Assembly: GCA_951406725.2 (NCBI GenBank)
Contig: OX597832.1
Coordinates: 25,792,001-25,856,000 of the forward strand
Length of the DNA: 64,000 bases
Source: Octopus vulgaris
Lineage: Eukaryota
Direction: 5' to 3'
Each line of letters opens with the position of its first letter. Within the stretch, counting starts at the first letter, position 1. The notes under the pieces are model-generated. The model had not been told where the DNA came from and did no database searches. It saw nothing but the letters and a program-made list of their open reading frames with translations. Below are positions 10,341-34,025 of this stretch, piece by piece. A program made the position numbers and the translations under genes.

Positions 10341-10690
10341 TATATCTTATCGACCCCAATGGAATAAAATGCTAACTTGATCTCAACGGGATTTGAACAC
10401 AGCACATAAAGTATTGGAACAAAAACCACAAGCCATTCAATGCCAAATTTTTTTTTTATTTTTCTTTAATCATTATGCTTTATTTATTCTTTAATTATCA
10501 TGCTTTTTAATCGCAAGAGTCAACAAGATACAATAAGCGTATTTACTTACAAAATAAAAATTATAATGCATTATAGGGATACGATATCGACGGCGTAAGA
10601 GAAGAGTGAAATTTTTTATCGAATTTTTCTGATTTAATGAATTCTTCCACAACTCAATATTTATTCTTCTTTCCTCACAACAAAGACATA

Positions 10691-11040
10691 GGCGCAGGTG
10701 TGGCTGTGTGGTAGGAAGTTTGCTTCCCAACCACACGGTTCCCGTTTCAATCCCAATGTGTGGCACCTTCGGCAAGCGTCTTCTACTATAGCAGCCTCGG
10801 GTCGATCAACGCCTTGTGAGTGGATTTGGTAGGTGGGAACTGAAATCAGCCCATCGCCCATATGTGTGCATGTGTGTTTGTCTTTATGTTTCTGTTTGTC
10901 CCTCGTTACCGTTTGATAACCGCGGTGTTGGTGTGTTTATGCCACCCCTGTAACATAGCGATTTGGTAACAGAGACCGATAGAACAAGTGCTAAACTTAA
11001 AAGGAAAAATAGATACTGGGGTCGATTCATTCGACTAAAA
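10691..11040 (+). mobile_element. SINE family A
   Basis: Diverged match to 5911-6333. Confidence 0.85.
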
Positions 11041-11236: not shown

Positions 11237-11997
11237 ACAATTACTATGAATAAACCAAGCAGAAACTTTGAAGGTTCGAATTCTTCGTTTTCCTTATCAT
11301 CAGTACTATATGTTGGTTTTGCAGTTCCTATACTTACCACGCACAGCTCCTTACATGTAAATTTTATTTATATATAATTTTATATGTATTTCTATATGTT
11401 TTTATATTTCTATATTTTTATGTATGTTTGGTTTTATTCTTTATACCCTTGGAGAATCTTTACGCCTCTACATGCATGATTTATGCTAATGAGTATAAAT
11501 ATATACGACTCAATTACAATGATTGAATATTTTCATTTATGCGTTCAGGAATATGTTTGACTGCCTAGAATTTGCGTTTTCAATTTCCTCTACTCTGTAT
11601 ATATATATATATATATATAGACGATGGATTTCCACGCAGTTTCCACCTATCTAACTCATTCATGAGGCAGTAGTTGGTCCGGAACTATAGTAGAAGGCAT
11701 CTTTTACCAGCTGAATGGACGTGAAATAGAGCAATGTGAAATAGAGTGCCTTGCTCAACAACACAATGCGCTGCCGAGATTCGAAATCACGGACTTAACG
11801 ATCGTACGCCGAATACCCTTCACCACTAAGACACGAGCCTTCGTGCTTATACATAGCCATACCTGCGCCTAAAAAAGATGTCTTAAGTAATGTAGAAAAA
11901 TGTTTTAATTACAGTTAACTACGCTTTGAAATTATTAATAAAAAACACAAAAAACGACAGAATCATTTTGGCAATTTCTTTCATAATTTAATGGTCT

Positions 11998-12011
11998 TTT
12001 ATTATTTTATT
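11998..12011 (-). promoter_or_regulatory. Candidate polyadenylation signals for the insulin-like gene
   Basis: Two AATAAA hexamers on the minus strand about 260 nt after the stop codon. The context is AT-rich, so this is weak evidence. Confidence 0.3.
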
Positions 12012-12266
12012 TTTTTACACAATTAAAGGTTCAAAGGAGCAGCAGATATACTGAACATTTGGGTAACATGATCGCTAAATGGCATTTGAAATACAGCAGT
12101 TATCAAGAACAAAGGTTAAGCAGCAGTTTGAGAGAGAGGAAGAGAGAGAGAGAGAGGAGGGAATTTCATAACAATGGTTGTTTGGATGTCGTTGTGATGG
12201 ATAAACTTGGCAACAAGAGGTACGCCATCGTTGCTAGTGGAGGTAGGTAGGACTACGTTGCTTTTG

Positions 12267-12445
12267 TCAGGGGCAAATTTTGAAAATGTCACAGTTTGAT
12301 CGACAGCAAGAATCGGCGAGCATGCGCACGGCCGACCATCTTCGTTTGACAACGGGAACGAAAGCATTTGTCATGTAGTTGATTTCATTTGTTCGTCGTC
12401 GTTTTTGGTGCGTCATAATGGTTGATTCGTCTTGGATAATACCAC
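12267..12445 (-). CDS. Insulin/relaxin-like peptide precursor, last coding exon (C-peptide end, A chain)
   Basis: Strong acceptor (T-tract ...ATATTTTCAG|G). Read in phase 1 it gives (S)GIIQDESTIMTHQKRRRTNEINYMTNAFVPVVKRR-WSAVRMLADSCCRSNCDIFKICP*. The phase matches the 33821 donor. Confidence 0.85.
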
Positions 12446-12726
12446 CTGAAAATATATAAAAAAAAAAAAAAACAATTATATATAAAATTATATTCAATGT
12501 AATAATTAGAATACCTATAGGCATGCAAATGGGTTTCTTATTTTTTTTTGTTCCTTTACTTGTTCACTGCGGCCATGCTGCAGCAGCACCTTTAGTTGAA
12601 CAAATTGAACCCAGGACTTATTCTTTATAAGCCTAGTACTTATTCTATCGGTCTAAGTTATGGAGACGTAAACACACCAACATCAGTTGTTAAGCGATGG
12701 TCAGAGGACAAACACAGACACAAATA

Positions 12727-12943
<217 letters not shown>

Positions 12944-13014
12944 GCGACATACTGAGGAGTCCGCGATAGGTATACAACGATATGATGAGGGATTATTGAA
13001 CATATATACAGATA

Positions 13015-13399
13015 GGCGCAGGTGTGGCTGAGTGGTAAGAAGTTTGCTTACCAGCCACATGCTTCCGGGTTCAGTCCCACTGCGTGGCACCTTGGGCAAG
13101 TGACTTCTACTATAGCCTCAGGCCTAGTGAGTGGATTTGGTAGACGGAAACTGAAAGTAGCCTGTCGTATATATGTATATATATGTATGTGTGTGTTTGT
13201 GTGTCTGTGTTTGTCACCCTAGTATAGCTTGACAACCGATGCTGGTATGTTTGCGTCCCTGTCAGCGGTTCGGCAAGGGGAGCCGATAGAATAAGTACTG
13301 GGCTTACAATGAATAGGTCCCGGGGTCGATTTTCTCGACTAAAGGCGGTGCTCCAGCATGGCCACAGTCAAATGACTGAAACAAGTAAAAGAGAGTAAA

Positions 13400-13401
<2 letters not shown>
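13015..13401 (+). mobile_element. SINE family A, full-length
   Basis: Close match to 5911-6333. Confidence 0.9.
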
Positions 13402-13484
<83 letters not shown>

Positions 13485-13802
13485 ATGACAGAGAGAGATG
13501 GAGAGAGGGGAGAGAGAGAGACTGACAGACAGACAGAAATAATGTGTCACCTCAAAAGTCCATAGACACGCCTCATTATACCGTGTTGTGTCTATGGTCG
13601 CTTTTGGTTGCTGCGATGCCAAACAAGTTGTACTATAACAAATTACGCCGACCGGGTTTGTCTGCTGAATGCTAGACTAAATGTTTTCTGTACTTGAAAT
13701 GACATTATTTTGTTTTGTTTATAGAGATGTATCTGTCAGACAAGAAAAAAAGATATGATCGAACCTATTTACAGTTGCGATATCAGTGAGTGTTTGAGAA
13801 TG

Positions 13803-13866
<64 letters not shown>

Positions 13867-13953
13867 TGTATGCATATGTGCGTGTGTGTGTGTGTGTGCA
13901 TAGGTGGATATTTATATATATATATATATATGTATGTATGATGTATATATACA

Positions 13954-14024
<71 letters not shown>

Positions 14025-14118
14025 CTATCTATCTATCTATATATCTATATATCTATATATATCTATATATATATATACATATATATGTATGTGTATATAT
14101 ATATATATATATATATAC

Positions 14119-14149
<31 letters not shown>

Positions 14150-14578
14150 CATATACGTGAATGTATGTATGTGTGTGCGAGTGGGTGCATGCGTTTGTTT
14201 GTTGTGTGTGGCTGTGTATGTGTATATGTTGTGGGTATGTATGCATCTGTCCAAAATTATACATGTGCATGTGTGCGAGCGTTTGTATATGTGGAGGTTT
14301 ATGTATGTATATTGATGAAGGTGCCCGTTTGTATATACACTTATTACTCCAATCGCTAACTTGCTCTTTATTCCCTTCCTCAACAACTCATGTGATTCCT
14401 GGTTTCTAATGAAATATAAGTGCTTCATTCACAGGTAAATATTGCATTATTTGATTCTCTGTCTGAAGAACTTCTAATGCGAGAAGTCTTACATGTTTTC
14501 TGCTTCATGTGCCATTTTGTAACTCCTATTAGAAAATGAAACGTGTGTAATGGTGAATAAATAATGGTCCCTCCCCAC

Positions 14579-14617
<39 letters not shown>

Positions 14618-15728
14618 TGTGTGAGTGTTTGTGTGTCTCTGTTTGTGTAAGCATGTTGGAATGTCATTAAGCGTTGAGACCAATTCTGCCAATCCAGGAA
14701 AACACAAGCTTCTGACTGAGCACAGGGCCATCGAATATTAAAACAATAATAAATAAATAAATAAACGCTACCATTGCAAATATCTTACCAAATATCTTCA
14801 TTGCATTCTCGCAGAAGATTGCTCCCTAATCGTACAAAACATTTACTGACAACCTGATCCATTATCCGCTCGAGCATAAGTTTCTCCTCGCCATCATGTA
14901 GCCTGCTTGAATCACATTTATTAAAACAACATCGATAGTTCTGTGTCCACAGCAATCTTCTCCATCGTAATATCGGAGATTGTTTTTCGATGAATATAAA
15001 ATATTTCATTTGCTGATGTTTTATAGGATCAGAACTTGTTTATTTCCACAGCAGACCCTGTCGACGATGTCTGTCATTTTACCTTGCTTTTATTTTTTTT
15101 CTTTACCGACTTAATTGTTTCAGCCATTGAACTGCGGCCATGATGGGCCAGCATCTTGAAGTGTTTTAGCCGAACAAATCGGCTCCAGCGGTTATTTTCT
15201 CTTCCATGTGCGTGTGTCTCTGTCTTCATAGAGTCTGCTGCTTATACTACAGGTTTTTTTAAACCGAACCGCTAAGTTAAATGGACGCAAATAAACAAAC
15301 ACTGGCTGTCGGACGTTTAGCGGAGGTGACAAACACAAAACAATTACACACAGACTCGCACGCACACGTAATATACATATATATTACCGTGATCACCGTG
15401 GCCGACCAGGCTATCAGGTGTTGCTACACACCGCTGGTCACAATGCGCTTCGCATTGTTTTAGCCTTCAAATGACGCCATCCCGCTGGCTAAGAGAGCAG
15501 GCATTTCCAACCAAATATATTCGCAAGATATTGATCAACCCGGAGCTGTAGCAGAAGACACATACTCAATGAGAGCCCCTGGGCGTTTGAACCCGAATTC
15601 ACGTAGTTGCAATGCGAAATTCTTAACTACAACCATTTCTGTGCCTACACACACACACACACTGAATCACACACAGAATCACACACAACCACGCATATAG
15701 GTAGACATAGATAGATAAATAGATAGAT

Positions 15729-15793
<65 letters not shown>

Positions 15794-15944
15794 TAAACAG
15801 ACAGACACACAGACAGAAAGACAGACAGACACACACACACACACAGACAAACAGACACACAGACACACAGACACACAGACAGACACACAGACACACAGAC
15901 ACACAGACAGACAGGCAGGCACACAGACAGACAGACAGACAGAC

Positions 15945-16019
<75 letters not shown>

Positions 16020-16663
16020 CAGAATCGATATATATGCTGTCCGAAATATTCTCCGCACAAGGCTACATCATTGCTTAGCATCTGAAACCTAAAAGGGGGG
16101 GGGTAATAACGTGTGACCCCGAAACCCTAAAACGACGCCAAACTTCACAAGAACTCATTGCCATTATTTCTTTCTAATAAGATTGCATTCATCTTTATTT
16201 TAAAACTTGTTCTACATTGATTAAATAAGAAAAGAATAAACAAAATGAAGTATATTGTTCTCGGCGATTGATCTCCTGCCAGAACTAATTCGATTATGTG
16301 AAGTCCTATGATCATCGCACACCATGTATATTTTAATATTTATGGATCATCGCTGATCCAAGCCAAAATACAATACTGTAAATATTAACCTCATGTATAA
16401 CGCGACCCATAAACTCTGAAATATAATTCAAACGCAATAAAACGATTTAGCATTACATAGATTTTTATGTACACCCATAAATAAGGCAAGTATGCCGTGT
16501 GGTACGAAGCTTGCTTCTTAACCACATGGTTCAGGGTTCACTCCGACTGCGTGGCACCATAGGCAAATGTCTTACACTATAGCCTCGGGCTGACAAAAGC
16601 CTTATAAGTGGATTTAGCAGATGAAAACCGAAACAAACCCGCCATATATATATATATACATAC

Positions 16664-16774
<111 letters not shown>

Positions 16775-16981
16775 CAGTAAGAGGCTTCCAAATAGGAAAG
16801 CGTTGTGCCAGAACACAAAAAAGGGATAAATTCACGAAAGCACAACGCTTTCCTATTTGGAAGCCTATTATTGTATTTCTATATGAATAATATATAGTCT
16901 AGTGACTAATTCGTTTTTTGTGCCAGGCCACTGGTAATAATAATTTATTATTACCCTATTTTATTATATATATATATAATA

Positions 16982-17034
<53 letters not shown>

Positions 17035-17037
<3 letters not shown>

Positions 17038-17572
17038 AATATGTTACATTACTCGATAGTCAAGATAGAACTCTGAGTTTCTGATGCCGAAGTGGAAATC
17101 CACAACGTCATCTCTTCGGTTATCTGGCTATTTGAAAACGCTATGAAAAAATACCGTTAAATAAAGGGAAATTACTCTGTTATAACTCTGCTTGCCTGCG
17201 TACTTATACATCGCTCGCATTTTTCGTCATAAAAATTATATAAAAATACATTAAAAATATATAAAAAAATATACATAAAATATATATATAAAATATATGA
17301 TAGAAGGTATGATGAGGTAAAAAACCTTCTTGAGACATAACATAGAAAGCATGTTCTATCTGTTTTCTTTAAGGGACCAACGGTATTTTTTCATAGCGTT
17401 TTCAAATAGCCAGATAACCGAAGAGATGACGTTGTGGATTCCCACTTCGGCATCTGAAACTCAGAGTTTTATCTTGACTATCGAGTAATGTAACATATTA
17501 TTTTATAGATAAATTTCCTCTATTTACATAATATTGAGGTCTCTTTCTTTCTTTTGTTATCTTACCGTTTTA

Positions 17573-17577
<5 letters not shown>
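17035..17577. mobile_element. (TA)n-embedded Penelope-like terminal remnant with 124-bp inverted repeat
   Basis: Arms 17035-17158 and 17379-17502 are near identical, each holds a hammerhead-like motif, and (TA)n flanks both sides. Confidence 0.7.
17413..17473 (+). ncRNA. Hammerhead-like motif with CCGAAGA core
   Basis: GATAA-CCGAAGA-GATG..CATC-t-GAAA-CTC a GAG-TT-TTATC, with an inverted copy at 17064-17124 (-). Confidence 0.55.
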
Positions 17578-17622
<45 letters not shown>

Positions 17623-17626
<4 letters not shown>

Positions 17627-18183
17627 GTCATCCCATAAATAATGCGGTTTTTTATACTTATTTTATATTTCAAAATTAAGATAAATAAAGTTCTCTTTTA
17701 ATTTCCATTTCCTACAATGCTCTTCCATCTTTCTGGTAGTCTTGCAAGGCCCCTCTTCCAAAATTCACTTGTCCGTCATGAAAATACTCCTCCAGTACTG
17801 TTCTGACCTCGTCTACAGAATTCGTATTTTTCCGTCCAAATGATTTTGAAGACTACAGAGTAAGTGATAATCAGATGGGGCAATGTCCGGCGAATATAGT
17901 GCAGCATCGTTTCCCATTCAAATTGCTCCAGCCTTTGGAATGTCATCATCGTTGTACGGGGCCGAGTATTATCCTCATAGAAGAATACCTTTCCTTTTTT
18001 CTTCTAGCGCTGACTTAAGCCGCTCAAGTTGCTCGCAGTAGATCTCCTTTGTTATCGTTTGGTTTGGGTATAAAAGTTGAAAGTGGACGAAACCTCTCAT
18101 ATCCCACCAAACAGATAACAATAACTTACGTGGGTGAAGACCTTGGGTGAAGGCCTGGGGTGCCGGTGTTTCTCCTGTCCCTA
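17623..18183 (-). mobile_element. Mariner transposon 3' half (transposase pseudogene + one TIR)
   Basis: [23 protein letters not shown]...YCEQLERLKSALEEKR, then DNTRP and a frameshifted YSPDIAPSDYHL. TIR-like end TTGGGTCATCCCATAAATAATGCG next to TA. Truncated by a (GATA/GACA)n tract. Confidence 0.9.
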
Positions 18184-18184
18184 C

Positions 18185-18270
<86 letters not shown>

Positions 18271-18317
18271 GGCAGGCAGGCAGGCAGGCAGACAGACAGA
18301 CAGACAGACAGGCAGGC

Positions 18318-18455
<138 letters not shown>

Positions 18456-18461
18456 ACAGAC

Positions 18462-18496
<35 letters not shown>

Positions 18497-19016
18497 CACA
18501 CACACACACACACACATACACACACGGAGTATACACGACCATATCACTCGCTGCAGCTCTGTACAGCTCTGCTTTGATGACTAACTCTATCGACCTGCGC
18601 ATACTCCCATACGAAGTCTTGTGTCAGTGTCTGTCTAAACTTCCAGTATATTCTATTTTAATTTACCAATTCCTCCATGCATGGAATGAATGCAACGAAC
18701 AACTAAACACATTAACTATATCTAATAGGTTAATTACATATGAATTTGATTATAATTTGGTCGAAGGTTAGAGTTAATTATTTTTTTATAAAGTAATTCT
18801 TTATAATAGTTAAACGCTCCGTGTGTAATTGAGACTAATTATTCGCGCCAACTAATTAAGTAATATCATGGTTTAATGATTTAATAAAGTTACAAGTGTT
18901 ATATGAACATGTGGGTGTGTATGTGTATTGGTTTACATGTGTTAGTGTATGTATTTGTGTATATATGTGAAAGTATGTATATGTAAATATATACATACTT
19001 TTATGTGTGTGTGTGA

Positions 19017-19061
<45 letters not shown>

Positions 19062-19270
19062 GCCTTTTGTTCTTTTACATGTTTCAGTCATTTCACTGCG
19101 GCCATGCTGGAGCACAGCCTTTAGTCGAACAAATCGACCCCCAGGATGTATTCTTTGTAAGCCTCGTACTTATTCTATAGTTTTCTTTTGCCAATCCGCA
19201 AAGTTACAGGGACGTAAAGACACCAACATCGGTTGTCAAACACACACACACACACATATATATATATAAA

Positions 19271-19307
<37 letters not shown>

Positions 19308-19351
19308 GTATGTGCATATATATATTGAGAGATAGATAGATAGATAGATAT

Positions 19352-19424
<73 letters not shown>

Positions 19425-19505
19425 TATATCTGTGTATCTGTGTGTATGTGTCCGTGTATGTATATATATATATGTATATATCGCTCCTCATTTACGTGTG
19501 TGTAT

Positions 19506-19541
<36 letters not shown>

Positions 19542-20277
19542 GCGTATATATGTGTACTCACACACACACACACGCATATACTCAATGTATGTATGTATAT
19601 ATATAAATACACATGTAGTTATATAAGTATGTATGTATTATCTATCTCATATATCTGTTTTTGGTGAGTATTTTTTTGCTCTGTGTATCTCAGTGTGCGT
19701 ATAAATACATATGTGTGTGCGTGTGTGTCCGTGTGTGTGTGTGTGTGGATCGTTATACGTGTGTTTTGATGCAGCTAAAGATATGAATTTTAATCTTTAG
19801 TCTTTGAATAATATCACACAAGATAGAATAAATTATAATTGAATATCTCTATATTTATATCTCCGTCTCTATATTTATAATCATATCCGTATATTTATAT
19901 CTCCATCTATGTTTCTATCGGCATCAATATCAATTCATCCTTTTTAGTTCTCTTCCCCTTTCGCCATCGCTTTTTAGCCTATATAGGAATGTATATATTC
20001 TTTTGATTCGTCTAATCGTTGCAATCATTAAACTGATGCCATCCTGGGGCACCGCCTTAAAGGGCAAAATTGATTATATCGACCCCTAGTACTTTGTTTA
20101 ATAATTGTAGTATCGATCTTGATAAAAAGCTAGAGGGAAGTCTCTGGCGTAGACAGACGTTCAAGTTTGCCTACGATATACATATAAATGTATATATGTA
20201 TTTATGTATGTATGTCTATATATACATAAATACATACATACATATACATATACATATACATATATATATATATATAT

Positions 20278-20340
<63 letters not shown>

Positions 20341-20344
20341 TAGT

Positions 20345-20409
<65 letters not shown>

Positions 20410-20544
20410 TAAAATACATATGTATACGTATGAAACAGAATCAAACACCGGCAAGATTTGTGGCGGTCTGCGTCAGCAAGGAATATATTTGTACTCAGAG
20501 CATTAAGACATAGTTCAAATTCTGCCGACGTGGACTTTAGCTCA

Positions 20545-21103
20545 CCGGGCGAAATGCTTAGCGGTATTTCGTCTGTCGTTACGTTCTGAGTTCAAATTCC
20601 GCCGAGGTCGACTTTGCCTTTCATCCATTCGGGGTCGATTAAATAAGTACCAGTTACGCACTGGGTCGATGTAATCGACTTAATACCTATGTCTGTCCTT
20701 GTTTGTCCGCTCTGTGTTTAGCCCCTTGTGGGTAATAAAGAAATAGGTATTTCGTCTGTCTTTGCGTTCTGAGTTCAAATTCCGCCGAGGTCGACTTTGC
20801 CTTTCATCCTTTCGGGGTCGATAAATTAAGCACCAGTTACGCACTGGGGTCGATGTAATCGACTTAATACCTATGTCTGTCCTTGTTTGTCCCCTCTATG
20901 TTTAGCCCCTTGTGGGTAATAAAGAAATAGAAATAGGTATTTCGTCTGTCTTTGCGTTCTGAGTTCAAATTTCACCGTGGTCGACTTTGCCTTTCATCCT
21001 TTCAAGGTCAATAAATTAAGTACCAGTTGCGTACTGGGGTCGATCTAATCGACTGCCCCCATCTCCAAAAATTTCGGGCCTTGTGTCTAGAGAAGAAAAG
21101 AAA
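20545..21103 (+). mobile_element. SINE family B with internal tandem units of about 185 bp
   Basis: Units start at 20563, 20746 and 20936. Confidence 0.88.
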
Positions 21104-23774
21104 AAATTAAATATTGCAATACAAATGTATTACTTTCCAGATGAATTTATTTTTAGGTTCGCTGCCTGAACACAGCTTTGCTAGAATATATACAGTGAAG
21201 CTTTACTATAGCGTCGTAAAATTATCGACTGCTATATCCAGTAAACTTTGGTACCTTGTTGCACCACTATTCTGTATATACATATATATATAATATATTG
21301 TGTTACACTAACTAGCGATGCACGGTATTAGAATTTTCAGCTCGATTTATATATAACAAACAACTCTATAACGTTGTTAGACTATCTACAGAAGTGGAGT
21401 TCGGACCGGTAGGTTGTATTAGCATTGAGTCTTATTAGCTGTAATAATGAAGCCGAACCAAGTAGTGATATTTTGAAAGCATTTGATATGACTGTTTCAG
21501 GTCCGACTAATATATAATTGGAAGTGCATCAGTTACTAAAGAAGGTTTACGTCATATATGCAAGTCTACAATGCATTCTGTCTGATCTGCCAATCTACCT
21601 CATATCTTGTTCCTTTAATAATATGTAATAATGCATAATAGTACGAAATGTAAGGAATACATTTATAAATAATCAAGCAGTGGTTTGCTTCGATGTGAAA
21701 AGCAAACGATATGGTTACAATTCAAGATTTATCTTGCAAGATCTTCATCAGTGAAAGAAACTTTTCTACTCTCGGCACAAAGCCCGAAATTTCGGGGTAG
21801 AGGGCAAGTCGATTAGATCGACTCCATATGCAACTGGTACTTAATTCATTGACCCCGAAAGGATAAAAGGCAAAGTTGACTTCGGCGGAATTTGAACTCA
21901 GAACGTAGCGGCAGACGAAATTCCCTCAAAGCATTTGACCCGGAGTGCTAACGTTTCTGCCATATCGCCGCCTTTCATCTGTGAAAGGATGTTGGTGTTC
22001 TGTCGTATTAAAAAATGCAGACGGAGTCAAATTAGTCTGTCTAATTTGCCTTTCAGTAGATGCGCGGCCATCGCAGATAAATTCATTCGTAAAGTACAGC
22101 ATATTTGTTGATAATCTGAAATGCAAGTTATACATGTTTTGTGAAGGCGGGAGTCAACTCGTCATAGAATCGCCGGGAAGCTGTCATTATGTACGGAGTG
22201 TCTTGGATGTTTTAAATCTGGCAGAAACCATCCGTTCCAGATATATACATGTCAGATTCCTTCCGGGGAGATAATGAGAAAGAGGAAGCGTAAGTGAAAG
22301 GGAGAGAGAAAAGAAGTATCCTTATTAAGCGGCATCGTGTTACATATTTTATTTCTCATTTTTCGTAAAATATAAAGAATTTAGAATTAGATTTGAATTA
22401 AAAATTGTCCTTATTTGGCACGTGATTTGATCCGAGACCCTGTTTGAAACAAGCAATAACAGCATCGAAGACAGATTTTTAACTACACAAAAGCTGTCGA
22501 CTTCACTTAATACTTTATTTTATTTCTTTTTGAAAATTTTCGCCCCACTATCTGTGACCTGGTCACTGATACTATTCTGCCGGAAATACATAAAGAATTT
22601 AAACCAAATAAAAATGTACTGCAATATTTTTATCATAGAATATACTGCAGTGTTTTTCATGAAAAATCTGAAAAAAATCTCTCAGCCAAAAGAGGAATTG
22701 ATTCTTCGTGCTTTCTACAATTTACCAATATTCTATCTTTCTACTTCAACTTTGATCCCGTTCCTATTAAGCTATTTACTTTTTCCATTTCTTATCGAGT
22801 TGCTGCGAATAGTCCGGGAAATATACGAGACCACATTCATGGAACGATATCAATAAATTTCTCGATCGGTGAGGTCAATGTTATCAATTTGAACTGCTGA
22901 CAACAAAGACATCACATTTAAGTAAACCTAATGTTGTTCATATACTCATGTTGCTGTTGTTGCTGTTGTTGTTTTTTTTGGGGGGGGGGTTGAACTATCT
23001 ATTTTGCGAGAATTTCAATCACTAGATTTAACATTTCCATTATGGCCGCCGAAGCCAGGGTTAATTAAATTATCAGTCGAAAGTTCTGGATGTTGTATCT
23101 AGCGTTATATTAACCTCTGTGTGTTGGGATATCAATTATAAAGACATTATATATTGTTATTAATATAGGTTTTACGTGCGCTTCTTTTTTCCTTTTTCTT
23201 TTTTTTTTTTTGTATGTATGAGAACGAATCATAGAAAGGGGAATTCTACGGAAGACAGTTCTTTTATCAAGAGATGGTCTCTTCTATGCTCTCATTTTGT
23301 GTTACGTATGTTGCAATACACGGTATATGCTGCTAAATCACACTCGCTCGCGAGTGACGGCAGTCTATTCTATTGCACAATATATATATATATATGTGTG
23401 TGTATGTATGTGTGTGTACGTATGTATGTATGTATACATTTATTTATTTATATATATATATGTATCACATAAATCTCGTAGATTATGTCGGTTCCAAATT
23501 TTGGCACAACGCCAGGAATATTGCGGGAAGGGGTAAGTTGATAACATCGACTCCAATATTCAACTAATACATATTTTATCGACCCGGAAAGGATGAAAGA
23601 CAAAGTCTAGCGTGCTAACCATTCCGCTAGTTTGTCGCATTAGGAAGACAAATAATATTAATGTTAGTTCACAATGAGGTAAAGCAAATGTTATATCATT
23701 TTCGTAATAGCATTCAAAGTGATCTCATTCAGAAAAAGATGCCTTCGGCACATTTGGTGTAGTGTTTGGTGGAA

Positions 23775-23880
<106 letters not shown>

Positions 23881-24174
23881 CAATCTGAGCATATAGCTCA
23901 TTTGTAATTCGTACATATATATATATATATATATATATATGAAAAAAATATAATTTAGGGTATCTAAGAGATACCACTACGCTGGTAATAACGGCCAAAA
24001 CGTTACTCTAAAACGACATTAGGATTTAGGGTCACGTTTTGGCTGCTATTTTCAGCGTGGTGGGGGTCTCGTAGATACCCTAAATTATAATTCTAATAAT
24101 AAAATATTACCGTTGAAGGTTTTTATTCCCATGTTGGCCACCTGGTAAGATCAGTATTTAAATAACGATCTTAT

Positions 24175-24228
<54 letters not shown>

Positions 24229-24486
24229 ATATATATATACACGCACATATATTTACGAGAGGTTCTTGGCCAAAAGGTTATCACGAAGCACCTGGTTACA
24301 GGCTCGATCGTCCGAGTTCTTTTACAAGTCTTAGAAGAACTGAAGGGCCACTGAAATATGTGTGTGAATTTGAGAGGGGAATATGTTGAATAACATCTTA
24401 ATTAAATGAACCTCCTCTATTTTCTTTTACCCAGACCCTGGAACTTTCCAGCATATCCTCGTGTACGTACATACACACACACGCAC

Positions 24487-24547
<61 letters not shown>

Positions 24548-24614
24548 CGTAAGTACATATATATTAAGATACATAAATATACACCAGTGTTTGTATTTCA
24601 TTAGTAATACACGA

Positions 24615-25000
24615 TATTCTTTTCTACTCTAGGCGCAAGGCCCGATATTTTGGGCGATTCCTGTACGCAACTAGCACTTAATTAATCGACCCCGTAAGGA
24701 TGAAAGGCAAAGTCTACCACTGCGGAATTTGAGCTCAGAACATAAATACAGTCGAAATACCTATTTCTATTTCTTTACTACCCACAAGGGGCTAAACGTA
24801 GAGAGGACAAACAAGGACAAACAAACGGAGTAAGTCGATTACATCGTCCCCAGTGCGTAACTGGTACTTGATTTATCGACCCCGAAAGGATGAAAGGCAA
24901 AGTCTACCTCGGCGGAATTTGAACTCAGAACGTAGCGGCAGACGAAATACAGCTACGCATTTCGCCCGGCGTGTTAACGTTTCTGCCACATCGTCGCCTT
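24615..25000 (-). mobile_element. SINE family B dimeric copy
   Basis: Reverse complement of the 20545 array. Other copies lie near 3657, 21760, 23495, 26497, 32872, 33123, 34707 and 54711. Confidence 0.88.
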
Positions 25001-25070
25001 ATTAATGATGTAAGATATTGAAAGCCTTATTACGTGAATATTGATAATGGAAACAGCAGCACTGACAGAG

Positions 25071-25101
<31 letters not shown>

Positions 25102-25123
25102 TACCAGTACCAGTAGCAGCAGC

Positions 25124-25175
<52 letters not shown>

Positions 25176-25194
25176 ATGGTGGTTGCAGTAGAAA

Positions 25195-25269
<75 letters not shown>

Positions 25270-25487
25270 AGGCAATTGTAGATATTTTTGGGAAAGGAAG
25301 TTTTGTCAATGATTGGACACGAACGTTGCTATTTCCATCTCTCGATTTGATTTCGTCTGTTCGGTAGAATCGATGTGAAGTTTCTGTTAGTCTCCACGTT
25401 ATGAAACTGAAATAGGTTTACCTAAAACACACACACACAGATATACGTATGCTTGCATACGTATAGAGAAAAAGAACAGACATGCAG

Positions 25488-25528
<41 letters not shown>

Positions 25529-25960
25529 TTCTTTTATTCTTTTATTTGTTTCAGTCATTTGACTGCGGCCATGCTGGAGCACCGCCTTTAGTCGAGCAAG
25601 TCGACCCCAGGACTTATTCTTTGTAAGCTTAGTACTTATTTTATCGGTTTCTTTCGCCGAACCGCTAAGTTACAGGGACGTAAACTCACCAGCATCGGTT
25701 GTCAAGCGACATTGGGGGGGACAAACACAGATACACAGACATATACACACACATACATACACACATATATATATATATATAAATAGACACATATATACGA
25801 CGGGATTCTTTCAGTTTCCGTCTACCAAATCCACTCACAAGGCTTTGATCAGCCAGAAGCTATAGTAGAAGCCACTTGCCCAAGGTGCCACGCAGTGAGA
25901 CTGAACCCGGAACTATGTAGTTCGTAAGCAAGCTACTTACCACATAACCGCTCCTACGCC
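25529..25960 (-). mobile_element. SINE family A, full-length
   Basis: Reverse complement of 5911-6333. Confidence 0.9.
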
Positions 25961-26318
25961 TACAGATAGATCTTTTATTGTTTTTTACTTGTTTCAGCCA
26001 TTAAACTGCAGCCATGCTGGAGCACCGCCTGGGTAGATTTTAATCGAACGAATTTTTATAGCCAGGTACTTATTCTGTTGCAACCTTTACCGAACAGAAA
26101 GCACAGTGCTCTGTGGCTTTTGAGCTGTTTTAACTCGTGTTTCTAGCAATAGCTGGTGCTGGTCAGTACCCTCCCTCACTATTGTGACCTCTGTTAATAT
26201 ATATATATATACATACATATAATAAAGGAAACGGAAGGTGGATACCCAATCACATAGAAAGAAGCTTGCATACACACACACATATATACATATATATACG
26301 CATATATATATATATATA

Positions 26319-26370
<52 letters not shown>

Positions 26371-26373
26371 CAT

Positions 26374-26940
26374 GAAGGCGCATGGCTCAGTGGTTAGAGC
26401 GTCGAGCTTACGATCGTGAGGTTTTGCGTTCGATTCCCAGGCCTGGCTGCATGTTTATTTCAGGTTGCACTAATTCAATCAACTGTAGAAAGCAGTCCTT
26501 TTCTACTCTAGGACAAGGCCTGAAATTTTGGGGGAGGGGTCAGTCGATTAGATCGACCCTAGTACGCAATTGTTACTTAATTTATTAACCCCGAAAGGAT
26601 AAAAAGCAAAGTCAACCTCGGCGGAATTTGAACTCAGAACGTAAAGACAAACGAAATACAGCTAAGCATTTCACCCGGTGTGCTAACGTTGCTTCCAACA
26701 CGCCGCTTTAACTATAGAAAACAATCACGACCTCACAGGGGCCAAACTGTATCTGCCTTTGCCTTTCCCTTGGATAACATTGGTGGCAGGAAGAGGTAAG
26801 GCTGGTATGCATGGGTGACTGCTGCTCTTCCATAAAAACAAACCTAGGTTGAGCGTTCGCCGGTGAGGCGATTTTAGCCCAGACCTGTACCCAGGAAGGA
26901 AACCTCTTAGGTGCACCCATGCACATGGATGAGCAGAGGG
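26374..26940 (+). mobile_element. SINE interrupted by a family B SINE
   Basis: tRNA-like head at 26374-26450. A family B copy (-) at about 26495-26709 is flanked by the degenerate TSD AACTGTAGAAAGCA / AACTATAGAAAACA. Confidence 0.7.
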
Positions 26941-27233
26941 GGCTAGATAGATTTGGAATAGCTTCTGTCTTTATCACGTCCTACAGTTTTCATGGAAACA
27001 ACAGCAGCTTAACCCTTCTAGAGACGTTTCTCCTCATAATATCAACTAAGTTTGATTTTTTAAAGTATATATATAATGTGTGGCCTCCAAAAACTCAGTT
27101 TGATTATATAACTTCGATACAGAACTCACCTCAACAAAATAACTTCCTACGTAAACAGACACAATATCACTTTAGTCCTCTCATTCTTACTGCCTTTATT
27201 TCCCTGGGATAACGATTAAGAAAATATAGGAAA

Positions 27234-27528
27234 TCTTTATATATAAAAGTAAGGTTGTGTGTCTGTCTCCTACGATTTAGATTCCTAACTACTCCCACAT
27301 TTTGCGGTGCAGTTTAACCAAAACCGGGTATCTTATAGTCGTGATTCATATCGAGCCCTTCTGGGTATTAGCGCGCGTCTACGATGAGTCTACGATTTAA
27401 AAAAAATTTACCATCATTTTTTTTTCCATTTTTAATGCATTTTTTGCTATTTTTTGGCTATAACTCTCTAAAAATACTTTATAGTTATTTCCCTTACAAA
27501 CCCGAGCAACGCCGGGCGATACTACTAG
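27234..27528 (+). mobile_element. Non-autonomous Helitron
   Basis: 5' A|TC start, subterminal hairpin CCCGAGCAACGCCGGG (27501-27516) and 3' CTAG|T end. Inserted between A and T with no TSD. Confidence 0.85.
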
Positions 27529-28311
27529 TATACACTAAAAAAAGATCCGGAATCAAGAGAGATTAGATATTTATTTTTGTGCTGTGTTTCATTGATTTTC
27601 TTAAAATATTTAAAGAAAGAATTTAAAATGCCGTTTTCCATTGATTTTCACAAAACCGGAGCAATGCAGGAGCTACGTTTGATAAAATGACGTCAGAGTT
27701 TTGGGATTGACAAGCTTTTCCGTTTCTATAAATAGCTAAACTTTTACTGCTCCTGCTGCCGCTACTTCTACCCTTGTTGCTTCTATTATTACCACTGCTA
27801 AAACTGCTGCTATTACTATGATAGGTTATAAAGCATTATACGGGATATACTAGACCATATGATTCACACATAATATAAAGGCTGCTACAATTGTTTTCCC
27901 TCTCTTTCTTTCTCTATCATCACGCACTCATGCACGCATATACTCACGAATACACACAGTCAAAGACGCACACACATAATTTTAGAGTACACTCAGAGTA
28001 CACTCATTTATGTGGTACACATACGTGCATATGCATATATACATACATATAAACCATACCACACAGCCACTCCTACGCCTATTTTTTTTATATGAAGGCA
28101 TATTTATATGTGAATGCCTATTTATATATGAACAAAATTCAGAAGGGTATTAAAACACCACTTTCTATAAACAAAGTTATCGCTCCAAAAGAACAACTTA
28201 CTATCAAAATACACACAACGAATGCAACAAACAACAAAAATAGGCTTACTTTGTATGAACTACAGAAATAAGAAATGCGTAGATTCCGGGATCGATGTAT
28301 GTGTGTGTGTG

Positions 28312-28600
28312 TGAAACCGTGTGGCCTACTGGTTAGAATGTTGCACTGACAGTCTAGCAACCGTGGGTTGGATTCCTGGAGGGCGACGCACTGTGCTCTT
28401 AAGCAAGACACTTCATTTCACGTTGCTCCAGTCCACTCAGGTGCAAGAGGCGTAAACTTGCGACGGAATACCCTTCTGATCCAGTGGAATGTTGGCCTGC
28501 TCACCAATCTAGCGGGGTGGCATCATTCGGTAGCTAAAACAATACGAAGCGCATTGTGACTAGCGATGTATAACAACAACCGATAGCCTGGCCGGTGCAA
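28312..28600 (+). mobile_element. SINE with CORE-like body and a third tail type
   Basis: tRNA-like head and AAGCAAGACACTTCATTTCACGTTGCTCCAGTCCACTCAG. The tail recurs at 15385-15500 (-) and 56945-57030 (+). Confidence 0.8.
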
Positions 28601-28739
28601 TTCTAACAGTAAAATTATTTTAACACGAAATTACTTGCAATACCAAAGACATGATAAAATTTAATGAATAAAATGTTACAGACAAAATTATAATTTCTGC
28701 GCCGGCCTCTACCGGTTGGAGGTACCCTGATAGATTTGC

Positions 28740-29130
28740 ATCGCCGTATTCTATCCCTCTCTGCCCTTGAACTCTACAACCATCTTTCAATAGTATGTAC
28801 TCTCTTCTACAATATCCGTAAACTCGTCTCCTCTTCACACTTGCCCCATTACCATCTTCATAGTCAAAGCACCCCACACCGCTACAATCCCTTCGCAAAA
28901 TTTATATACCCGACAGCTCTACCTCTAAGTACCTGACCGGTATTTGATAGTCAAGTAACCCATCTTCAACTGGTCCTCGAGATTCTTATTTCGCACACTA
29001 ACCCGACATATCGATACTTTAACTCATCCTTCTCGACCCTTCTTCAGCATTAAGTCATTCTACGCTGTTTTACCACACAACGGAGGTCTACTGACCTCCC
29101 AGTTCTCTAACCGTCTCCAACTGAGCAGCA
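28740..29130 (-). mobile_element. Highly decayed LINE (RTE-like) fragment
   Basis: Scraps such as CRVSVRNKN and a degenerate RL-R-W-G-VL-like segment, with many stops and frameshifts. Confidence 0.3.
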
Positions 29131-29154
29131 TCCCTAATATTGCTTGCTGGTAAG

Positions 29155-29545
29155 AGCTGGTGCCACGTAAAAAGCAGCCGTGCGTAAAAGCACCCAGTGC
29201 CACTCTGTAAAGTGGTTGGCATTAGGAAGGGCATCCAATCGTAGAGATCAGGCCAAAACAGACATGGAGCCTGAACAGCTCTTCAGAGGGTCAGTTCCGG
29301 TCAAACCATCCCAAACCATGCCCGCAAGGAAGACAGACGTTTGATGATGATGATGATGATGATGATGATTAGGAATTGCATGTTTAGATAGTTTGTGTTT
29401 TGTAGTGGTAGGCATTAGGAAAGACATGCAGCCGTAGAAACCGAGCCAAAACAGGCTGGAATCTGGTGCAGCTCTCTGGCTTACCAGCTCAAATCGTCCA
29501 ACCCATACCAGAATGGAAAACGGATGCTACATGATGATGATGATG
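29155..29545 (+). mobile_element. Two tandem 3' tails of a retroposon ending in (GAT)n
   Basis: The motif GGCATTAGGAAGGGCATCCA..CGTAGA..CCAAAACAG...CCATGCC..CA.GGAA..C.GA occurs twice (29215-29345, 29405-29530), each followed by (TGA)n. Confidence 0.6.
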
Positions 29546-29646
29546 ATGATGATGGTGATGATGATGTGTCAGATTTTCGGAAAAGACACTCGTGTCCATT
29601 TCACTATACCCAACACTGTCGCGGATGTTTTCGTCATCGTTATGGC

Positions 29647-29679
<33 letters not shown>

Positions 29680-29970
29680 GGTGGTGGTGGTTGATGCTAC
29701 CATCAATATTGTTGCTTATGCTGCTGTCGTCTGTCGACACCTGTCAGCCTCCGATCACCGAAGAAAATTAAACGCTAGCAATGTGTACCTTTCTAATGAG
29801 TGAGCTACAACGAATCATCATCTTATATATGTATATATATATATAGGTGTGTGTGTGTGTGTGTGCGCGCGTTTGTGTGTGTATCTATGTATGTGTCTGT
29901 GTGTATATGTATATGTATGTATGTGCGTGTGTATATATATTAGAAAAAGTAAGGTATTCAGAGAGATCTG

Positions 29971-30026
<56 letters not shown>

Positions 30027-30579
30027 TATATACATGTATATATATATATAATTCTTTATTTTTATATAAGTAATTGTTAATGAATCACTTCGTATGTTTT
30101 TAATTAAGAAACAGTTGTCATCGGAGAATTTGACCTTTGAAAAGTAAAAGTCTCCAAGATCTCTTCTGAGACTTATCACCTACCGTAAATCAATCACCAT
30201 CCCCGCCAATGATTAAGGTGTGATCGAACATGTTTTGTATGTGTTTTATATGTGTTGTGTGCGTGTGTGTGTGTGTGTGTTTTTTTCTGTAGGTAGTTAA
30301 TTAAGTGTCAGCACTCTGAGGAGAGCGGTGAGATGGAATATGTTAATTAATCAAGACATTAGCTGAGAGACTTTAACATTGGATCAAACTTGAAAGCTGG
30401 TGGCGGGCTGGAATTAACAGCAATAATATAACGATGGTGGTGGAGGTGGTGGTGATGATGATGATGATGATGATGATGAGGATTTCTGTAATCGGCACCA
30501 GAGCCCATGACATTGAAGACTAAATAAAAAATGAAATAATAATAATAATGATGATGATGATGATAATAATAATAATAAC

Positions 30580-30620
<41 letters not shown>

Positions 30621-30622
30621 TG

Positions 30623-30693
<71 letters not shown>

Positions 30694-30695
<2 letters not shown>

Positions 30696-30783
30696 ATCAC
30701 AACAAATCACAGCACATACCTAAGGCACACAGAGCTGTGCTCGGTAGTGAATTGAAAGCACGCTATAAAAATAAGACTACTGA
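30694..30783 (+). mobile_element. Short 3'-UTR remnant of an (AAT)n-targeting LINE
   Basis: A 90-bp unique segment flanked by (AAT)n on both sides and ending ...ACTACTG(AAT)n. Family assignment is from recall/inference. Confidence 0.4.
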
Positions 30784-30819
30784 ATAATAATAATAATGAT
30801 AATGATAGTAGTAGTAAAA

Positions 30820-31443
30820 ATTGAGTGCCATTGTTATCAAGTGAACGATATTTCGGGATATAGTGTGCCTTCCACAGGTTCAAAAAATAAACTTGTCAAT
30901 CTACTTCGTTTTGGTAATATTTATATGCGATCAATTCTTTTGCAACTGTAACATGTTGGATTTTTAAATGGCCAGTCTTTTTCGAAATGTATGCACTCGC
31001 ATCCATAACATGGATTTGGACGTGGCTCTAGTTTTTGGTTGTACTTTCCGGTCAGCATATCTATATTTTTGAGGAATGCTTTTCTTTAATTTTTGTACAT
31101 CGTGTTTCAGGTTTACCACCCTTTGGCATTCTTCTGCCACAAACTGTAAAGTTAGATCTTGGTTCGCTTGTTCCAATTTAGAAAGAATTCTTGCCCGAAT
31201 TACTGTATCTTCGCTGTAAGGCCTTGTACGAAAATAAGACACTTAAACATCTCAGTTTTAAGGTCTTTGAGTTTAAAACTTTCACAAATCCTGTTGACTG
31301 TTCCTACGTATGTGATAAAGTCATCTTTCTCTTCCTTCCTTGTATTCCAACACTCAATTCGAGTGTTAAATAGAGAGGTTTTATCACCGAAAATCTTAGA
31401 CGGTAATTCTATTGTTTCTTTAAAACAAATTTCACTGTTTTAA
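30820..31443 (-). mobile_element. Gypsy-type LTR retrotransposon gag relic (K02A2.6-like)
   Basis: KIFGDKTSLFNTRIECWNTRKEEKDDFITYVGTVNRICESFKL...FKCLIFVQGL / IRARILSKLEQANQDLTLQFVAEECQRVVNLKHD. Decayed zinc knuckles (PCYGC..HFEKDWPFKNPTCYSC) and a possible integrase scrap NNGTQF follow. Confidence 0.8.
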
Positions 31444-31445
31444 AT

Positions 31446-31899
31446 GATATTGTTGTTTGGGACAGAGGAGCAAAGGTATGTACCATCATAGAGGTTAGCT
31501 GCTCTACAGATACGAATATCTCTGAAAATCAAAGAAGGAGAGGATTTCTAAGAACAACTGCTTCGAAACCTCCAGCTTCTAGATCCAGACTATGAATTTA
31601 TATTCATACCAATAGTAATTGGAGCACTGGGTTTTGTTAGTTAATGCTTAAAAGAGAATCTGGATAAACTGAGATTTTCAGAAAGAGAAATCGACCGGTT
31701 AATTCGTACAGTAAAAATATGCAAGACTTTTCTCAAGTTCGAAAAGTGAATTTTTCGTACAGTAAAAATATGCAAGACTTTTCTCAAGTTCGAAAAGTGA
31801 ATTTTTTCTGTGTTAACTACATCCTAAAGATGGGGCCTTGTATCTTTGTTGGAAACCGGCTCCCTCCGCAGTGGAAAATTTATATTTATTAAAAAACAG
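31446..31899 (+). mobile_element. R4/Dong-like non-LTR retrotransposon 3' end (restriction-like endonuclease domain)
   Basis: DIVVWDRGAKVCTIIEVSC..D.NI / LLRNLQLLDPDYEFIFIPIVIGALG...VKICKTFLKFEK*, matching the PD..(D/E) RLE domain. A 51-bp tandem duplication spans 31703-31804. Confidence 0.8.
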
Positions 31900-32252
31900 A
31901 AGAGACATACATACATACATGCATACATACACACATACTTAATAGATACATATACATATATATATATGTACATATGTAAATATACATGTACATATATATA
32001 TACATGTATATATATATATATGTGTGTGTATGTGTGTAATTACATTCTGTGAAGTCATTCGATGCCTATGTGTACTTTAATTACTGTCTATGCAGAAAAT
32101 TTCTTCTCTAAGTCAATTACCGTAGCAAATACCACTTTCGAGTGTGTACCAGGTGTCTTCGTCCGAAATATATTGATTTTCATAAACGAGAAGCTTTACA
32201 ACTAAACACTTTATCATAAGTGGCATACGTCTTTCTGGACATATTGATAAAA

Positions 32253-32307
<55 letters not shown>

Positions 32308-32314
32308 TATATAC

Positions 32315-32360
<46 letters not shown>

Positions 32361-32379
32361 ATATGTATATATATATATG

Positions 32380-32481
<102 letters not shown>

Positions 32482-32510
32482 TATGTATATACATTAGATA
32501 GATAGATAGT

Positions 32511-32585
<75 letters not shown>

Positions 32586-33344
32586 CAGATACACATATAT
32601 ATATATGCACGCACACATGTATATATATACACACACACACGTATACATGAATATATATTTATACGCATAAGTATGAATATATGCATGTATATATGCATAT
32701 ATATAATGTATATTTGTATATATTATATATATATTTCCTGAGAGCACATACAGCCAGGAGTGCGCACAAGCGTGTGTATGCATGTGAGGAGTTGTAATAA
32801 TTAATATTCTATTCCTGAGAATGTATTTCTTTAATTTGCTCTCATTGTCGTTACAGTATTTGTAGCGTTTAAAGCGACGAGCTAGCAGAATCGTTAGCAC
32901 ACCGGGCGAAATGCGTAGCCGTATTTCGTCTGCCGCTACGTTCTGAGTTTAAATTCCGCCGAGGTCGACTTTGCTTTTCATCCTTTCGGGGTCGATAAAT
33001 TAAGTACCAGTTACGCACTGCGTCGATGTAATCGACTTAATCAATAAAAACTCAGAGCAAAATACCGTTAAACATTTCGTACAACGTAATAACGTAAGCT
33101 CACCGTCTTAAAATTCAAATATATTCTTTTCTACTCTAGGCACAAGGCCCGAAATGTTTGAGGCGGGGACCAGTCGCTTAGATCGACCCCAGTACGCAAC
33201 TGGTTCTTAATTTATCGACCTCGAAAGGATGAAAGGCAAAGGCAACCACGGCGGAATTTTAACTCAGAACGAAAATACAGACGAAATACGGCTACGCATT
33301 TCGCCCGGTGTGCTAACGTTTCTGCCAGCTCACCGCCTTAGAGT

Positions 33345-33410
<66 letters not shown>

Positions 33411-33820
33411 CTAACAAAATCTTTTTATTGGCTCAAGCTTTCTAACACAATCTACTAAGAACTGAAAACTTCGTATAACTTGGTATGAAACTTACCCTGC
33501 AGCCCTCACATTTCCCGATCTTATAAATCCTATTCTCCCTTTATTTGTTGAATCAAAAGTTTTCTCAGAACCCACCAACGTACTGTGCTCTGACAAGGTT
33601 GTTTCCCAACCAAGTACATTTTATCAATAACTTAGCTTCCGTTTACGTCTCCTTCACTCTTCATTTTGTATCTACACGATCTTCTAGTTTATAATCTCAA
33701 CACAAACACAACCTATACTACATAAAGCTTATCATTCAATCTTTCTTCCTCCTAAAATATATAAGACATTTGCACAAAACTACGAAACGAATACTTTTTA
33801 TGTACGAAACTACCACTTAC

Positions 33821-34025
33821 TAGCTTTCTTTGGAAAGATGTTCTGAGGCTGCTCAATCGCCTGCGTCAGGGCTCGCTTAGATCGATCACGCCATATGCAA
33901 AGTGCAACAATGCGATACGGTGTGTATTTGCTGCACGGATCTATACGGTAAGCGCTTGATAATATCCAACACAGCACAAAGACCGCTACTGTCGTCGACC
34001 AAAACCGGAACGATGTGAATGCCAT
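33821..34025 (-). CDS. Insulin/relaxin-like peptide precursor, first coding exon (signal peptide, B chain, start of C-peptide)
   Basis: Translates MAFTSFRFWSTTVAVFVLCWILSSA|YRIDPCSKYTPYRIVALCIWRD-RSKR-ALTQAIEQPQNIFPKKA. It has a hydrophobic signal peptide ending S-S-A, C-x11-C B-chain spacing and a furin-type RSKR. A pyrimidine tract + TAG acceptor lies directly before the ATG, and a consensus donor A|GTAAGT at 33821/33820 is in phase 1. Confidence 0.85.

Follow-up and report, generated by a model that had tools for sequence, protein, structure and literature searches.

A conserved insulin-superfamily precursor with a shortened A chain, probably of relaxin/gonadulin ancestry, in Octopus vulgaris

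A gene on the minus strand of Octopus vulgaris contig OX597832.1 encodes an insulin-superfamily precursor in which only five residues separate the last two cysteines of the A chain (CC-x3-C-x5-C). The window, to which plain coordinates refer, is the whole stretch analysed: 64,000 nucleotides, positions 25,792,001 to 25,856,000 of the forward strand in assembly GCA_951406725.2. The x5 spacing is real and conserved. The precursor is probably of relaxin/gonadulin-type ancestry. Judging from its sequence, it may be a two-chain, three-disulfide hormone of that type acting on either of the receptors LGR4 and GRL101, a reading in which our confidence is about evenly divided. The gene is already on record, the x5 spacing has precedent, and the insulin fold is not extended by it.

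The two coding exons join in phase 1 to give a stop-free 127-aa precursor. Features of the gene are as follows.

33821..34025, minus strand, coding exon 1: from the signal peptide through the B chain and first cleavage site into the C peptide
33951..34025, minus strand, predicted signal peptide: about aa 1-25, cleavage point estimated
33888..33950, minus strand, B chain: aa 26-46, with Cys31 and Cys43
33873..33884, minus strand, R-S-K-R, predicted furin/convertase site after the B chain (W-R-R in P0003-P0005)
12446..33820, minus strand, phase-1 C-peptide intron: 21,375 bp, GT-AG, acceptor TTTCAG at 12446
11996..12445, minus strand, last exon: remaining C peptide, A chain, stop and 3' UTR
12393..12404, minus strand, K-R-R-R, second basic cluster within the C peptide
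12339..12347, minus strand, K-R-R, predicted convertase site before the A chain (K-R-K in P0003-P0005)
12267..12338, minus strand, A chain (aa 105-127, 23 residues) and stop codon: CC-x3-C-x5-C-P

The ATG of coding exon 1 directly follows the splice acceptor, with an in-frame TAG upstream of it, and the exon ends in phase 1 at a GTAAGT donor at 33820. The last exon carries AATAAA poly(A) signals at 12011 and 12003. Six different sequencing runs out of 24 listed, none of them recorded as RNA, were compared with the locus. A contig of run X5 spans 11996-12444 and continues into exon 1. On exon 1, the C-peptide intron junction and the upstream junction are both present in contigs of three of the four runs (X5, X1 and X9, from three studies); run X17 gave no contig on that exon. 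These contigs break at both exon boundaries, one side leading to the start of exon 2 and the other to a single genome match near C19:25,982,288, adjoining a GTAAGT donor. This match therefore implies a 5' UTR intron of about 156 kb. The gene is transcribed, because spliced contigs occur in the runs, and the in-phase join together with the splice junctions means that the exon pair is not a chance combination.

A non-coding first exon lies at about C19:25,982,285, about 156 kb upstream and beyond the window, and the gene takes up at least 178 kb to encode 127 aa. The public O. vulgaris model, CAI9736653.1 (P0001), translates exon 1 in the wrong frame and thus omits the signal peptide as well as the B chain; it needs correction. 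P0001 agrees with the window along exon 2 and was left out of the count of independent sequences. When exon 1, exon 2 and P0003 were searched as proteins against the genome, no paralogue was found: all other matches had E>=0.8, and those inspected are not insulin-like. No second insulin-like A chain is present in the 664 kb around the gene.

SINE-like high-copy repeats at 10690-11040, 12550-12700 and 13010-13400 flank the last exon amid long microsatellites, with depth up to millions. Within the intron, the single-copy segment 14780-15110 (minus strand) contains several CC pairs and one CC-x3-C after R-R, probably by chance. The CC-x3-C stretch at 14914-14961 was considered as a relic exon and rejected; it is single-copy and unlike exon 2, and 73 of 300 shuffles scored as high.

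The A chain has the spacing that the earlier note had reported. The minus strand from 12350 to 12267 translates as V-K-R-R-W-S-A-V-R-M-L-A-D-S-C-C-R-S-N-C-D-I-F-K-I-C-P-stop, and the cysteine codons begin at 12308, 12305, 12293 and 12275, which gives intervals of 0, 3 and 5 residues. The same note had raised the possibility of a 9-bp assembly deletion. In all four runs on exon 2 (X16, X17, X18 and X5, under four organism labels) the A chain is covered with no indel, and the only nearby difference among them is one 3' UTR base at 12265. It had also allowed for x8 spacing in orthologues, and none was found. The O. bimaculoides protein (LOC106869569, XP_014770853.1; P0002), which UniRef names 'Insulin-like domain-containing protein', is identical at 124 of 126 residues, with identical A and B chains; two substitutions and one Arg fewer separate it from the window, all within the C peptide.

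More distant homologues agree. Scanned in full with HMMER, 1.84 billion representatives yielded three matches at E<=0.001, namely P0002, P0001 and P0003 (37% identity); a profile search added P0004 (35%) and a cluster look-up added P0005. P0003-P0005, which amount to about two independent sequences because P0004 and P0005 are one residue apart, keep a C-x11-C B chain lacking Gly, the 0/3/5 spacing and the terminal C-P. An assembly error, a private deletion or a pseudogene has a practically negligible probability, given the gap-free A chain in four of four runs, the spliced transcripts in three of four, the identical O. bimaculoides chains and the x5 spacing in homologues at 35-37% identity. 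P0003-P0005 also carry a basic extension of 20-21 residues ahead of the signal peptide; their translation probably starts at an upstream ATG in the first exon, where Octopus has an in-frame stop. P0005 is present on 87 contigs.

The precursor has the insulin-superfamily layout: signal, B, C and A segments with basic sites, a phase-1 intron in the C peptide and six core cysteines. The signal region has a hydropathy peak of 2.75 over 11 residues, and its SSA motif is kept in P0003. The B chain reads C-x11-C, with cysteines at 33935 and 33899 followed by Ser and Ile rather than Gly. The earlier note was thus correct about the sequence of the B chain and its missing glycines, but the chain lies 21.4 kb upstream of the interval 12267..12350 to which the note had assigned it. 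The K-R-R-R cluster has one Arg fewer in O. bimaculoides and is not conserved in P0003-P0005.

Several branches of the superfamily differ from this gene. Traits of IGFs are absent, as the stop lies two residues past the last cysteine and basic sites flank the C peptide, so that there is no D/E extension and no single chain. Dilp7 traits are also absent: there is no phase-2 intron and no extra segment between signal and B chain. Molluscan insulin-related peptides (MIPs) have eight cysteines, and the mature part here has six, a seventh being in the signal peptide; the C-x-CC-x3-C-x8-C arrangement is missing. The earlier remark that the fourth MIP disulfide is absent is therefore correct. The distinct subfamily that it proposed stands as far as separation from molluscan MIPs is concerned, but the peptide is no new fold class, and its orthologue was already filed as relaxin-like.

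That filing is found in Dataset S3 of Feng et al. 2025 (PMC11863921), cited throughout for part of its text and data, in which XP_014770853.1 is labelled RLP (relaxin-like), as is a Sepioteuthis gene. The relaxin/Dilp8 clade described there includes mollusc precursors with long branches, and the authors themselves raise the possibility that such precursors were misplaced through long branches, which counts against the relaxin reading. That study takes a single phase-1 C-peptide intron and the lack of an intron between signal and B chain as a mark of relaxin/Dilp8 genes as opposed to Dilp7 genes. The octopus gene shows this arrangement, with signal and B chain in one exon and the phase-1 C-peptide intron as its single intron in coding sequence. 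On the other side, this intron character does not distinguish relaxins from ordinary insulins.

Published relaxin-type peptides show that a short A chain and a B chain without glycines both lie within the known range; the earlier note, which had called them non-canonical, overstated them. By our own count of the 30 chains in Fig. S2 of PMC11863921, 22 have x8 as their last A-chain spacing, three have x9, four have x10 and one has x5 (Drosophila Dilp8), and both B-chain glycines are missing in five of the 30 relaxin-type chains. Spreadsheet S1 of Veenstra 2020 (PMC7357564) was covered at 20 of its 49 'gonadulin' places, which comprise 17 sequences and three 'not found' rows; the 17 gonadulins have x8 in nine, x10 in six and x5 in two, the x5 cases being Drosophila and Glossina Dilp8, and both B-chain glycines are missing in 12. 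The rest of the relaxin-type peptides and gonadulins mostly show x8, and for this reason cephalopods and higher flies are likely to have acquired x5 independently. According to the part of PMC11863921 covered here, Dilp8 is a ligand of LGR3. Dilp8 has x5 and no B-chain Gly; therefore, the octopus layout is compatible with signalling through an LGR.

Individual residues point in the same direction. These were compared by eye and without statistics, partly against Fig. S2 of PMC11863921. The A chains of P0003-P0005 contain C-C-K-M-G-C-x-x-S-D-I, which resembles C-C-K-W-G-C-x-x-S-E-I of relaxin-3. This likeness suggests that three residues may have been lost before the last cysteine, and removal of one helical turn of the A chain, as the earlier note had proposed, is plausible. 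The B chains of P0003-P0005 have K-x-x-x-R-x-x-L in register with R-x-x-x-R-x-x-I of relaxin, the B-helix cassette through which relaxin binds its receptor. The octopus cassette is imperfect, with Tyr at the position of the second Arg, which counts against the comparison.

A divergent insulin-type peptide, acting as agonist or antagonist at the single octopus insulin receptor tyrosine kinase, would account for the relaxin likeness by divergence or convergence, and this is a somewhat doubtful alternative. A G-I-V start and a Tyr before the last cysteine are needed for insulin-receptor binding. The A chain has L-A or I-A, not I-V, before the CC pair and no Tyr before its last cysteine, whereas the MIP-type A chain in the same genome keeps both G-I-V and Y-C. 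Also against it, the tree in the available part of PMC11863921 puts the mollusc precursors in the relaxin/Dilp8 clade, but the same source allows long branches as the cause of the mismatch between mollusc ligands and receptors. Further points on its side are an insulin-receptor-type L domain in the genome (C3:181.94 Mb), the negative search for LGR3 described below, and clusters of ordinary insect insulin-like peptides and bombyxins among the ESM Atlas rows, at 0.91-0.93. We agree with the earlier note in inferring that an LGR-type GPCR is a likelier target than the insulin receptor.

Sequence and feature searches give a mixed picture of the family. In ESM Atlas features, the insulin superfamily appears at 0.91-0.93, with a 150-aa arthropod cluster at ranks 1 and 3 and an INSL3 cluster at rank 4; 4-10 of every 100 shuffled proteins also reach 0.9, which makes these scores support rather than proof. 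Dilp8 has 150 aa, the length of the top arthropod cluster, which is a lead only. Pfam reports no family at E<=10 in either exon or in P0001 and P0002. A genome search with the PF00049 profile gave three candidates, of which the one above the cut-off is the MIP-type A chain at C3:100.95 Mb (minus strand); the present gene is not among them, so the search is not a full census of insulin-family genes. A PDB sequence search with a two-sequence profile found no insulin and two irrelevant phycobilisome matches. Linkage offers no help either: no IGF or dilp7 gene was found in the 664 kb around the gene, the octopus genes being far apart, and Dataset S3 of PMC11863921, as far as covered, places O. bimaculoides ILP7 on chromosome 2 and RLP on 19, which gives no support from synteny.

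No description of the cephalopod x5 form was found in the open literature, a scope in which subscription journals lie mostly outside; the data table of PMC6321970 (Cherif-Feildel 2018), a source available in part, may list such motifs. The protein accessions occur in no main text that was found, the peptide strings have no match in the open literature or in the searched parts of the De Oliveira 2019 supplement, and the motif 'CCX3CX5C' leads only to conotoxin and phage-display papers. No printed function or expression was found for LOC106869569, and its short A chain goes unmentioned in the parts of PMC11863921 covered.

Structure predictions were made from shallow alignments. An AlphaFold model of the full precursor, built on an alignment of two or three sequences, has a pLDDT of 52, and the pro-form without signal, with three sequences, has 64, with the A and B regions at 78-87. 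The pro-form model places a three-residue helix after the third A-chain cysteine and merges the C peptide into long helices. Fold searches with these models gave no Foldseek match at E<=0.001, a best VIA Z of 3.6 and no insulin among the structures listed; with alignments of this depth, the outcome counts neither for nor against an insulin fold. By analogy with Dilp8, a three-helix, three-disulfide insulin fold with x5 spacing would be workable.

Candidate receptors were sought in the same genome. LGR3 was not found with a TM7 motif, an LGR3-type motif or two type-C LGR transmembrane-exon queries, in searches that score only first-look candidates. The TM7 motif gave eight matches, two of which are receptors. 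The LGR3-type motif pattern gave 40 matches, compared with 20 for a control, and none of the 30 translated is a receptor exon. The type-C LGR exon queries (78 and 39 candidates scored) reveal only two type-C genes, on C2 and C3; they also returned a type A/B receptor on C7 and ordinary rhodopsin-class GPCRs. The C2 gene (10.971-10.974 Mb, minus strand) is of LGR4 type: TM1-TM6 lie in one exon, the introns at TM2 and TM5 characteristic of LGR3 genes are absent, and the sequence resembles published LGR4 sequences; its ectodomain exons were not found. The C3 gene (76.76-76.81 Mb, plus strand) has a phase-0 intron before TM2, and we take it to be GRL101-like from its motifs and by exclusion. With these queries the GRL101-like gene is single, and no expansion like that listed for Pecten in the covered part of PMC11863921 was seen.

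A search for L domains found one insulin-receptor-like gene, at C3:181.94 Mb, and three EGFR-like genes on C10, the two groups being separated by motifs that we take as diagnostic. The EGFR-like genes are at 39.2, 39.9 and 67.5 Mb, two of them 0.7 Mb apart.

Molluscs are described in the covered part of PMC11863921 as lacking RXFP/LGR3, which is reported as lost, in agreement with the negative search here, and its receptor table lists only the bursicon receptor for O. bimaculoides. LGR4 and GRL101 types are present in the O. vulgaris genome, and therefore that survey of mollusc receptors, as far as it is available here, is incomplete. This incompleteness, and the use of first-look candidates only in our genome search, lend something to an unlikely alternative: that the peptide is a true gonadulin or relaxin whose receptor LGR3 is absent from the assembly or has diverged too far to be recognized, or one that uses an unrelated GPCR, as relaxin-3 and INSL5 use RXFP3/4. 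Also in its favour, Trp is the last B-chain residue ahead of R-R in P0003-P0005, like the final Trp of relaxin-3 and INSL5. An overlooked LGR3 is harder to reconcile with the performance of the searches, as the LGR4 query caught 50-aa exons at 40% identity, so that an LGR3 exon covering TM2-TM5 should have appeared, and two independent queries led to the same LGR genes.

The reading that we prefer is a relaxin/gonadulin-type hormone acting through LGR4 or GRL101. The precursor would be secreted and cut at R-S-K-R and K-R-R to yield an A-B heterodimer, with predicted disulfides A6-A11, A7-B7 and A20-B19 (insulin numbering) and a C-terminal A helix about one turn short. The B-chain helix would bind the leucine-rich-repeat (LRR) domain of the receptor, and signalling would proceed via a type-C LGR rather than the insulin receptor. 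Because LGR3 was not found, the type-C target would be LGR4 or GRL101. Of these, LGR4 may be proposed tentatively, and GRL101 is rather unlikely. The starfish peptides RGP1 and RGP2 did not activate LGR4 according to the available part of PMC11863921, which counts against LGR4 as a fallback receptor, and Veenstra, in the part covered, proposed IGF and not gonadulin as the GRL101 ligand, which counts against GRL101. What is known of Dilp8, starfish RGP and relaxin suggests by analogy that the hormone may have a role in reproduction or maturation.

A possible history, which we regard as no better than doubtful, is that cephalopods kept an ancestral relaxin/gonadulin hormone after the loss of LGR3 in molluscs and rewired it to GRL101 or LGR4, the three-residue deletion in the A chain being the ligand side of the switch.

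An externally acting peptide, such as a pheromone released into the water or a mimic of prey hormones in saliva, is highly unlikely. The peptide is small, basic and disulfide-rich, and a source consulted in part records that cone snails recruited insulin-fold peptides to their venom. However, the gene is single-copy with no tandem paralogue, and its chains are invariant in two Octopus species, which seems unlike the behaviour of fast-duplicating venom or pheromone families. The portion of a venom review covered names only tachykinins for octopus. The pheromone role that the earlier note had floated has no support: the Sepia SP pheromone precursors in the portion of PMC3484142 covered are unrelated, having 248-252 aa and a different cysteine layout.

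The gene sharpens an existing puzzle, in that molluscs are reported to lack LGR3 yet have relaxin-like precursors, and in octopus the gene of the ligand is a conserved single copy with spliced transcripts. The searches found only three candidate receptors for it, namely LGR4, GRL101 and the insulin receptor. If the target is GRL101, the peptide would deorphanise a receptor family whose ligand is only hypothesised. With chains of 23 and 21 residues and a minimal A helix, it is a natural test of the minimum length of the insulin fold. By analogy, it would also be a candidate hormone of reproduction or maturation in an animal about whose reproductive endocrinology little is known.

Among known systems, Dilp8 of Drosophila and Glossina (PMC7357564, in part) shares CC-x3-C-x5-C with the octopus peptide, but has 12 residues between its B-chain cysteines, compared with 11 in octopus. 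Gonadulins in the portion of that source covered are similar in mostly lacking B-chain Gly, in having six cysteines and in placing the B chain right after the signal, and, like the octopus gene, they are missed by ordinary family searches. Species with gonadulins have LGR3, as far as these sources extend; in the octopus genome neither LGR3 nor a neighbouring IGF or dilp7 gene was found. The RLP of the annelid Owenia fusiformis, the starfish peptides RGP1 and RGP2, and vertebrate relaxin-3, INSL3 and INSL5 share the precursor layout, the phase-1 intron and C-x11-C with the octopus peptide, and Owenia RLP also has in common with it, by eye, a Pro at +5 after the first B-chain cysteine and L-x-D-x-C-C-R in the A chain.

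Molluscan MIPs, such as Sepiella SjILP (PMC9221753, in part), have the signal-B-C-A order and dibasic sites of the octopus precursor. They differ from it, as does the MIP at C3:100.95 Mb, in having eight cysteines and C-x-CC-x3-C-x8-C, compared with six and x5. The SP-alpha and SP-beta precursors of Sepia officinalis (PMC3484142, in part) are likewise secreted and cysteine-containing, with dibasic processing; however, they are polyproteins of 248-252 aa without the insulin cysteine frame.
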